Shown: piece after piece, positions 56,188 to 56,569 of the stretch
Numbering within the stretch: the first letter of the stretch is position 1
Layout of the letters: each line of letters opens with the position of its first letter
DNA from: Bacteroidales bacterium
GTDB lineage: Bacteria; Bacteroidota; Bacteroidia; Bacteroidales; VadinHA17
NCBI GenBank assembly: GCA_040772125.1
Contig: JAXGYS010000003.1
Coordinates: forward strand, 1,947,073 to 2,011,072
Length of the DNA: 64,000 nt
Reading direction: 5' to 3'
Notes under the pieces: model-generated
What the model saw: only the letters and a program-made list of their open reading frames with translations
What the model was told of the DNA's origin: nothing
The model's database searches: none
Program-made: the position numbers and the translations under genes

Positions 56188-56569
56188 GGCTTTTTCTTTT
56201 GAATCACCCCCTAATCAGGATCATGAAATAATCCTGCTTCCGTCATAACTCTTCTCGTGGCAGGGCTTTTTCTTTTGAATCACTCCCCAAAGGATCACCG
56301 CAGGTAATCCTGCTTCCATAGACATATAAATCGTGGCAGGGCTTTTTCTTTTGAATCACTCCCCAAAGGATCACCACAGGTAATCCTGCTTCCATTGACA
56401 TATAAATCGTGGCAGGGCTTTTTCTTTTAAATCACTCCCCAAAGGATCACCACAGGTAATCCTGCCTTCATAGATATATAGACCGTTACGGGTGCTTTTT
56501 CTTTTGTATTCCCCAAAATCAGGTTCATGACATAACCCTGCTTCCCGCTCTAAGGATAACGCAGTTTGC
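56188..56569. repeat. five tandem direct repeats of ~76 bp
   Basis: The anchor TTTTTCTTTT recurs at 56191, 56267, 56343, 56419 and 56496 (periods 76, 76, 76, 77). The three inner units are near-identical, and the two outer units are diverged but resemble each other. Confidence 0.9.

Follow-up and report, generated by a model that had tools for sequence, protein, structure and literature searches.

A five-unit tandem repeat downstream of tRNA-Pro(UGG) in a Bacteroidales genome: a candidate amplified relic of an island attachment junction

Introduction

What is the nature of the tandem repeats that lie downstream of a tRNA-Pro(UGG) gene in the genome of a Bacteroidales bacterium (VadinHA17), and from which sequences might they have been built up? 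The stretch under investigation, hereafter the window, comprises 64,000 nucleotides (assembly GCA_040772125.1, contig JAXGYS010000003.1, forward-strand positions 1,947,073 to 2,011,072; all window positions are counted from its first letter) and harbors an array of five head-to-tail units of about 76 bp. The earlier note on this DNA had considered, among other possibilities, a terminator-like or small-RNA module and the scar of repeated integration and excision at the tRNA locus. The analysis reported here points, with moderate confidence, to an amplified and decayed attachment (att) junction module belonging to a tRNA-Pro island hotspot.

Organization of the array

The five units start at positions 56187, 56263, 56339, 56415 and 56492 (spacing 76/76/76/77) and follow the pattern A-B-B-B-A. 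Each of them contains a hairpin, referred to as H, and a degenerate core.

56187..56262, plus strand: unit 1, type A; T-tract, linker GAATCACCCCC, H CAGGAT-CATGAAATA-ATCCTG, degenerate core CTTCC, tail ending CGTGGCA; covariance model 70.2 bits
56263..56338, plus strand: unit 2, type B; hairpin at 56290-56312, AGGAT-C-ACC-GCA-GGT-A-ATCCT; covariance model 67.6 bits
56339..56414, plus strand: unit 3, type B; 98% identity with unit 2 in the 98-nt frame
56415..56491, plus strand: unit 4, type B with a diverged tail; 77 nt
56492..56569, plus strand: unit 5, type A', the most degenerate; hairpin at 56520-56540, CAGGTT-CATGACATA-AACCCTG; no T-tract after it; covariance model 53.4 bits
56187-56247, 56263-56323, 56339-56399, 56415-56475, 56492-56551, plus strand: covariance-model matches
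56216-56236, 56290-56312, 56366-56388, 56442-56464, 56520-56540: hairpin H of units 1 to 5

Tandem Repeats Finder reported a single array at 56188-56506 (period 76, 4.2 copies, 83% matches), which was also returned as 56188-56545 with a period of 152, and a covariance model built on homologous units gave exactly five full-length matches in the window (53-70 bits, E <= 3e-10) and no further copy in the 64 kb, filters off included. The two approaches agree, and the A-B-B-B-A arrangement described by the earlier note is therefore upheld. The observed number of unit motifs was reached in 0/100 shuffles. In the 98-nt frame, with unit 2 as the reference, the copy in unit 3 is 98% identical and that in unit 4 is 85% identical, and units 1 and 5 have an A-type centre in common (86% over 35 nt).

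Within each unit the order of the elements is the same, i.e., T-tract, C-rich linker GAATCAC(T)CCCC, hairpin H, CTTCC, and a tail of about 20 nt ending in CGTGGCA(G). Hairpin H is CAGGAT-C-AT-GAA-AT-A-ATCCTG in the A type and AGGAT-C-ACC-GCA-GGT-A-ATCCT in the B type. The compensatory change previously noticed in unit 5 is real: an A:T pair has become T:A (CAGGTT / AACCCTG), with one bulged C. The tail corresponds to the 3' strand of a stem of the hp3 type (a hairpin of the spacer preceding the array, described below), the matching 5' strand being absent, and all five cores are degenerate (CTTCC). The units are contiguous and have no unit-specific spacer, in agreement with the previous statement that this is not an array of clustered regularly interspaced short palindromic repeats (CRISPR).

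An assembly artefact, which the earlier note had envisaged as a possible source of the array, is unlikely, since contig L199, which belongs to a separate NCBI assembly (GCA_020047475.1), is 99.94% identical to the window over 6564 nt and holds the same five units. The two sequences part to the right of window position 56628. The five-copy state is thus found in two assemblies (the window and L199).

Homologous units at tRNA-Pro loci

The unit is carried by 61 loci, that is, 59 metagenome contigs, one Bacteroidales metagenome-assembled genome (MAG; L108) and the window itself. Previously, it had been envisaged that the unit might occur nowhere else and might lack structural covariation; on the contrary, it recurs at these loci and hairpin H covaries (see below), so that the feature is real and part of a family. 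In the scan of genomes with an initial loose pattern, GCTTTTTYTTTTN{28,36}CCTGCYTYC, the only true homologue among the matches listed was L108, in which one A-type unit follows tRNA-Pro and the same spacer; an enrichment of the loose pattern in Chitinophagaceae was rejected as conserved coding sequence. The 59 contigs were retrieved with a tighter pattern, in which the T-tract and the H stem are fixed, and the invariance of the T-tract and of the lower stem of H consequently carries no weight. The sequences found upstream of the first unit are the following.

41/61 loci: tRNA-Pro(UGG), 28-122 nt away, mostly 111-119 nt
8/61 loci: only a fragment with the tRNA 3' core
6/61 loci: cut by the contig end
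6/61 loci: neither the tRNA nor its core within 400 nt

At least three of the six loci lacking both tRNA and core (L143, L160, L175) are rearranged copies of the trailer module. The tie between module and tRNA-Pro extends over dozens of Bacteroidales-like genomes. A dispersed repeat, either a repetitive extragenic palindrome or bacterial interspersed mosaic element (REP/BIME) or a miniature inverted-repeat transposable element (MITE), does not fit this distribution: the 64-kb window has no copy outside the array, and tRNA-Pro or its core lies upstream in 49/61 loci. The orientation of the downstream gene varies among loci, the sole constant neighbor being the tRNA with its att core. The module was also searched for in viral contigs, which gave chance coding matches or nothing, and in annotated phages and plasmids, where the tRNA part alone was matched.

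A single unit is present in 42 loci, two units in 15, three in two, four in one, and five in this window only, the values for short-read contigs being lower bounds. The nearest relatives of the window are L140 and L135, whose flanking rhamnosidase is 92% identical at the amino acid level and whose nucleotide identity amounts to 94-96% over the stretch that begins with the tRNA and ends with unit 2. Both have the unit order A-B, and L140 also possesses a degenerate third unit, A', homologous to unit 5 of the window.

Some loci show further peculiarities. In L148 (oriented, 3412-3482), one unit is inverted and located about 140 nt upstream of the tRNA, with an expanded apical insertion in H (GAGCGAA... 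type), and a similar insertion occurs in H of the second unit of L137; the tip of H therefore tolerates insertions. In L178 (oriented, 330-1100), a gene for a Y1 transposase similar to those of IS200/IS605 elements or to REP-associated tyrosine transposases (RAYT) is embedded between a good unit and degenerate array units, with paired CCCCGG hairpins flanking it. Lastly, upstream of tRNA-Pro in L150 (oriented, 3280-3870), and also in L184, there are three tandem copies of the tRNA 5' part (CGGGGTGTAGCGCAGCCCGGT), each interrupted by a hairpin, with a small open reading frame (ORF) of GIY-YIG-like appearance between two of them. The 5' side of the tRNA thus accumulates partial duplications too.

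Likeness of the unit to the tRNA 3' end

The tRNA gene and the segment of it that is relevant to the array are the following.

56000..56075, plus strand: tRNA-Pro, anticodon UGG, no encoded CCA (ARAGORN; Rfam tRNA, 70 bits)
56059..56075, plus strand: core AATCCTGCCACCCCGAC, i.e., the 3' strand of the T-loop/T-stem and the 3' strand of the acceptor; segment duplicated at island junctions in relatives

The 3' arm of H consists of AATCCTGC, the T-loop/T-stem segment of the tRNA. After H, the last unit of 20 loci runs on into CACCCCGAC, the exact tRNA 3' end, giving AATCCTGCCACCCCGAC, the last 17 nt of the tRNA; intact cores, where they exist, are confined to the most distal unit. In some relatives (e.g., L138, L144, L150, L181), a module without genes is bounded by two intact cores, the distal cores of the window being degenerate. 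The alignment between the L151 unit and the tRNA (CGCAGGT---AATCCTGCCACCCCGAC) includes 24/24 aligned bases and one 3-nt gap. In the window, the B-type centre of unit 2 (CGCAGGT---AATCCTGC) equals the tRNA T-arm except for a 3-nt gap, with a local alignment p of about 0.002 (2000 mononucleotide shuffles of the unit). On the basis of these alignments, the unit appears to be derived from the tRNA 3' end.

Islands and integrases at the locus in relatives

In L131, L158, L168, L174 and L178, unrelated DNA runs directly into CTGCCACCCCGAC-AAAAGAAAAAGCC (13-17 nt of the tRNA core), which is followed by the usual spacer and unit; these are attR-type junctions. In L168 and L174, the ORFs adjoining the junction, immediately to its left, encode tyrosine integrases (Phage_int_SAM_5, Arm-DNA-bind_5). 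Just to the right of the intact second core (core2) there is a PD-(D/E)XK restriction nuclease in L150 and McrBC in L188. L155 has a HipA-family gene between core2 and a third core, the latter being preceded by linker-H, which in turn comes after a degenerate copy of the right half of the module. The central hairpin of the spacer (hp2) is abutted by a RhuM gene in L160 and by an integrase in L175, and L133 has an empty module with, after it, another term1-hp2 copy that leads into other DNA. Judging from these borders, the tRNA-Pro(UGG) locus appears to be an island integration hotspot, with the module placed at island borders.

Other arrangements are less easily read. In L158 and L168, an island is present at the tRNA core, and the DNA to the right of the intact or near-intact second core of the module resembles a conserved flank formed by a hairpin, a T-run and TTTGCA repeats; in these two contigs the flank is unconfirmed as island DNA. 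For the L175 integrase, relatives are located about 245 bp from a CACCCCGAC junction, and their arm holds AATCACCCCGAC-like motifs similar to the unit linker (L190, L196). The idea that L175 proves H to be the arm of an integrase-bearing island has been weakened, the 245-bp arm of these relatives being without H; L175 may be a deletion fusion.

To the right of the attR core in L190-L192, and after core2 in L138, L141, L158, L168 and L183, a hairpin and a T-run are followed by two to three tandem 11-bp repeats (ATTTGCAAACA / ATTTGCACACA), reminiscent of the arm-type binding sites that an island of another family would have at its left end. Otherwise identical contigs have different numbers of the 11-mer (three in L190, two in L191).

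The palindromic spacer between the tRNA and the array

The array had been placed immediately downstream of the tRNA; actually, it starts 111 nt after it, behind a palindromic spacer with three hairpins.

56075..56118, plus strand: A-run CAAAAGAAAAAGCC, hairpin hp1 (GCCTTGCAC-GAAA-GTGCCGGGC) and T-run; inverted repeat, conserved across 28 loci
56121..56147, plus strand: central hairpin hp2 (CCAGGCCCGGAC-TCG-TCCGGAGCCTGG), apex of the long helix T-run 56103-56126 / A-run 56142-56165
56150..56200, plus strand: second A-run, hp3 region (GACCGTGAATGAGCGAAGCGAATGAAAGGC) and T-tract GGCTTTTTCTTTT, which is the 3' strand of the outer stem and the start of unit 1

The first of these elements (A-run, hp1 and T-run) is the tRNA's own terminator, bidirectional in appearance. 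The 111-nt spacer (region 56075-56201) forms as a whole one large palindrome: the A-run and the T-run pair as the outer stem, hp2 closes the long central helix, and hp1 and hp3 stand at the sides. Its appearance is that of a cruciform or of two terminators facing each other. The two strands of the central helix (24 nt) are 83% complementary, and those of the outer stem (A-run 56075-56093 and T-tract region 56183-56201) are 95% complementary. The T-tract had been likened to the tail of the tRNA terminator; actually, GGCTTTTTCTTTT is the exact complement of the A-run following the tRNA (95% over the outer stem), and it is not simply a copied T-tail.

The spacer is conserved in 28 loci, with double compensatory changes at 20 pairs. 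RNAalifold revealed many compensatory pairs in the hp2 helix (e.g., columns 63/77, AU:14 CG:14, and 46/97, UA:12 GC:12), and the outer stem, in which columns 15/138 and 16/137 show compensatory changes, is kept in the same 28 loci. In the loop of hp3, the motif AATGAGCGAAGCGAATG, which contains GCGAAGC, is frequent.

Folding, transcription signals and coding capacity

The upper stem of H covaries, one pair being found as CG, GC, AU and UG and the next one as CG, UA and UG. The covariation score is 0.133 versus 0.048 in shuffles and was reached in 0/500 of them; controls in which the frame was slid collapse. The invariant C/A mismatch of H becomes a U-G pair on the minus strand. Neither the wobble counts over the predicted pairs (19 G-U vs 13 A-C) nor the folding of the whole array, with modest z-scores of -2.7 and -3.8, picks out a strand. 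The search of region 55500-57000 against Rfam (cmscan, both strands, E <= 10) returned only the tRNA and chance matches. A small-RNA module, as proposed in the earlier note, would agree with the covarying hairpin; the lack of an Rfam match and the undecided strand speak against it.

The terminator-like module suggested there is borne out only by half: the unit keeps the 3' strand of a terminator and the T-tract, the 5' strand being missing. Internal units have only the 3' strand of hp3 before the T-tract, so that by sequence they contain no complete terminator hairpin, and a terminator scan of 55800-56800 gave 0 sites, a weak result, since the imperfect terminator hairpin of the tRNA itself was also missed. 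No sigma-70-type promoter match was found within the array, and no Bacteroidetes -7 motif (TAnnTTTG) was seen there by eye.

A protein-coding repeat was rejected, the lengths of linker and loop differing by 1-2 nt, i.e., not by multiples of three, among homologues. The two minus-strand ORFs that overlap the array (56371-56571 and 56243-56401) have no Pfam match.

Origin of the array

The explanation favored here, to which we attach moderate confidence as stated above, is that of an amplified, decayed att-junction module. The intact module would consist of tRNA-Pro(UGG), the double palindromic terminator spacer, the T-tract GGCTTTTTCTTTT, the C-rich linker GAATCACCCCC, hairpin H and CACCCCGAC, where AATCCTGC plus CACCCCGAC would represent a second direct copy of the tRNA 3' end and the inverted repeat of H would have the form expected of a tyrosine-integrase core site. 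Such a module might be the outcome of the joining of the left and right ends of a tRNA-Pro-specific integrative island minus its cargo, that is, a very small att-flanked remnant that would be comparable to a cis-mobilizable element, or, alternatively, might be a secondary attB of the same origin. Its right-end portion (T-tract, linker, H, core remnant and 3' half of hp3) could have been multiplied in tandem by unequal homologous recombination or slippage, with the repeated T-tracts and H stems as the substrate, and the intact distal core may have been retained, or renewed by island integration there. An ancestral A-B-A' arrangement, such as that of L140 and L135, would have gained two more B copies recently: the 98% identity between units 2 and 3 suggests that the B triplet is recent, and the sharing of the A-B-A' frame with L140 and L135 suggests that the latter is older. 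Units within one array share the hp3 variant of their own genome, as concerted evolution would lead one to expect. Apart from its hairpins and T-tracts, the array is probably inert now.

The integration/excision scar put forward in the earlier note is therefore the best-supported of its options, given that homologous units end in the tRNA-Pro 3' end and border cargo and integrases; it does not hold in the form of a simple stack of scars. Serial integrations pushing older fragments outward would predict the best copy nearest to the tRNA, and the intact core is always the most distal one. The formation of precise tandem copies by an integrase in the window was also rejected, the internal junctions not being intact cores.

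Several observations weigh against the amplified att-junction module. The internal unit junctions are not clean cores, and therefore the tandem copies do not come from recent precise site-specific accretion. The units of the window retain only 8-10 nt of the tRNA end (AATCCTGC plus 2 matching bases, 10/12), with p = 0.002-0.22 for the single-unit alignments, and the link between unit and tRNA thus rests on the homologues. These were all ascertained through the T-tract/H-stem pattern, so that the share of tRNA-Pro loci without the module is not derivable from them. The integrases of three families (L168-, L174- and L175-type) were not found in the 64-kb window by tblastn, and between tRNA and array there is only the 111-nt spacer, with no cargo genes; hence, nothing in the window shows recombination activity. 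H is absent from the different, 245-bp arm that accompanies the close relatives of the L175 integrase (identities of 83% and 67%), and no cognate integrase for H has therefore been identified. Finally, the covariation of H and of the spacer is not predicted by a decaying scar, and the conservation of their structure exceeds what decay predicts; this suggests either selection on the nucleic-acid structure or palindrome-correcting mutation.

The latter point leads to the reading of the module as a functional structured RNA, in which H and the C-rich linker (G-rich on the minus strand) would belong either to the trailer RNA of tRNA-Pro or to a minus-strand small RNA ending at the bidirectional terminator, the window having five tandem copies of it. 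The compensatory changes in the upper stem of H and at the 20 spacer pairs agree with it, as do the H loops, which follow a GNA/ANA pattern, and a minus strand that, as read from the sequence, would give a continuous 10-bp helix (the C/A mismatch becoming U-G), then a G-rich single strand and a terminator, a layout typical of small RNAs. Nevertheless, palindromes can gain compensatory changes by template-switch correction without selection, the stem of H was set by the search pattern and only two of its pairs are informative, a terminator precedes every first unit on the plus strand, and no promoter motif was recognized in the array. Moreover, no Rfam family corresponds to it even at E <= 10, the wobble counts favor neither strand, and the constant neighbor is solely the tRNA with its att core, the downstream gene varying in orientation. 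We regard this reading as rather unlikely. A low probability is also assigned to a broader proposal, in which linker-H(-core) would be a functional and widely conserved Bacteroidales tRNA-Pro element, either a landing pad recognized and multiplied by integrases and diverting islands from the tRNA body or a new structured RNA domain in the trailer, and the window its largest known expansion.

It is quite improbable that the array still works as a secondary attachment site or forms an integrative micro-element without genes. In that case, island integrases would bind H-core and recombine it, directing islands to a place beyond the tRNA instead of into its gene, and adding or removing units in the process. 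This would account for the confinement of the intact core to the last unit, beside island-like DNA, for the H-core found on both sides of the L155 cargo, and for L158 and L168, where an island at the tRNA core is accompanied by flank-like DNA right of the second core, unconfirmed as island DNA; furthermore, H is an inverted repeat like the core sites of tyrosine integrases, and the linker resembles the arm motifs of related islands. Conversely, the cores of all five window units are degenerate, the three integrase families tested are missing from the 64 kb, the internal junctions are not conservative core joins, and a circular or attP form was not found among viral contigs, phages and plasmids. 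Least probable of all, and in our opinion hardly to be expected, is a duplicated terminator or insulator without any link to mobile elements. Replication slippage between genes, in a region rich in hairpins, would have produced it, and the blocking of read-through between the tRNA and its neighbors would be the reason for its retention. The T-tract and the 3' half of a terminator stem in each unit, the face-to-face terminator pair of the spacer, and a copy number varying among relatives as slippage predicts are in line with it. On the other side, the internal units are without the 5' strand of the stem and none was called as a terminator, though the scan missed the tRNA's own hairpin as well, and this reading leaves unexplained why relatives carry 17 nt of the tRNA 3' end as an exact copy, why the linker and H are conserved, and why integrases and cargo repeatedly lie next to them.

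Comparison with known systems

The rtT or tyrT-type repeats are tandem non-coding repeats following a tRNA gene, each with a piece of the tRNA 3' end and a terminator-like sequence, which presumably arose by unequal recombination. The array has in common with them the position of the tandem non-coding repeats downstream of a tRNA and the presence of a tRNA 3'-end piece, but differs in the tRNA, the phylum, the unit length and the sequence, and is tied to an island integration hotspot. The Rfam rtT model (RF00391) had no match in the cmscan of 55500-57000 described above (both strands, E <= 10).

Displaced tDNA fragments mark the ends of genomic islands (PMC4383910). Similarly to these Islander-type fragments, the units of the relatives contain the terminal 13-17 nt of the tRNA as a direct repeat and border DNA with integrase, toxin or restriction genes; unlike them, the window has no cargo between tRNA and repeats, its copies are 76 bp apart and head to tail with decayed cores, and besides the tRNA piece the repeat includes a T-tract, a linker that is conserved and a hairpin that covaries. 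Cis-mobilizable elements (CIMEs), decayed but still provided with attL and attR, have been described, as has tandem accretion (PMC5704250), and in Dehalococcoides the 3' end of ssrA recurs in tandem direct repeats, each with a conserved motif immediately before it (PMC3146451). In the locus, too, att copies (with degenerate distal cores in the window) follow one another behind a single target gene, and a conserved motif lies upstream of each direct repeat. However, known CIMEs are kilobases long, whereas the module in question measures about 110-190 bp, with a unit of 76 bp, contains no genes and has internal junctions that are not intact att cores. A literature search, not exhaustive, retrieved nothing specific on a conserved linker-hairpin module or on its tandem expansion.

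If the array is an amplified att-junction relic, att ends would outlive their islands as a gene-less module of about 100-200 bp, itself becoming a tandem repeat; such arrays break short-read assemblies, can pass for CRISPR-like or small-RNA arrays, and, in uncultured Bacteroidales, would point to tRNA-Pro(UGG) as a hotspot for islands. If the hairpin and the spacer turned out to form a secondary attachment site or an RNA, this would represent a small addition to what is known about how tRNA-targeting islands and their hosts coexist.

Genomic context of the array

In the window, the rhamnosidase gene and the tRNA are separated by a gene for a Tn5-like DDE transposase (53631-55082) and a DUF559 endonuclease-like gene (55180-55560), both absent in L140. 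In the latter the rhamnosidase gene is directly upstream of the tRNA, and the block of about 2.4 kb can therefore be considered an insertion.

The array does lie between the tRNA and an insertion sequence (IS), as previously described; the IS begins about 100 bp past the array and spans 56673-58007, with a DUF4372/DDE_Tnp_1 transposase and 28-bp terminal inverted repeats (56673-56700 / 57980-58007). Past the divergence at window position 56628, L199 has instead (6565-6688) an ORF beginning with MKKTRRKFTGAFKAKVAIEA, similar to orfA of IS3-type elements. The right flank of the array is thus an insertion hotspot, the window having an IS and L199 a different IS-like ORF there. The short-read contigs L002-L004 break at the end of the IS. 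Farther to the right, at 59467-59943, two 237-nt direct repeats (74% identity) in the gene of a 346-aa PKD-domain protein represent ordinary domain repeats.

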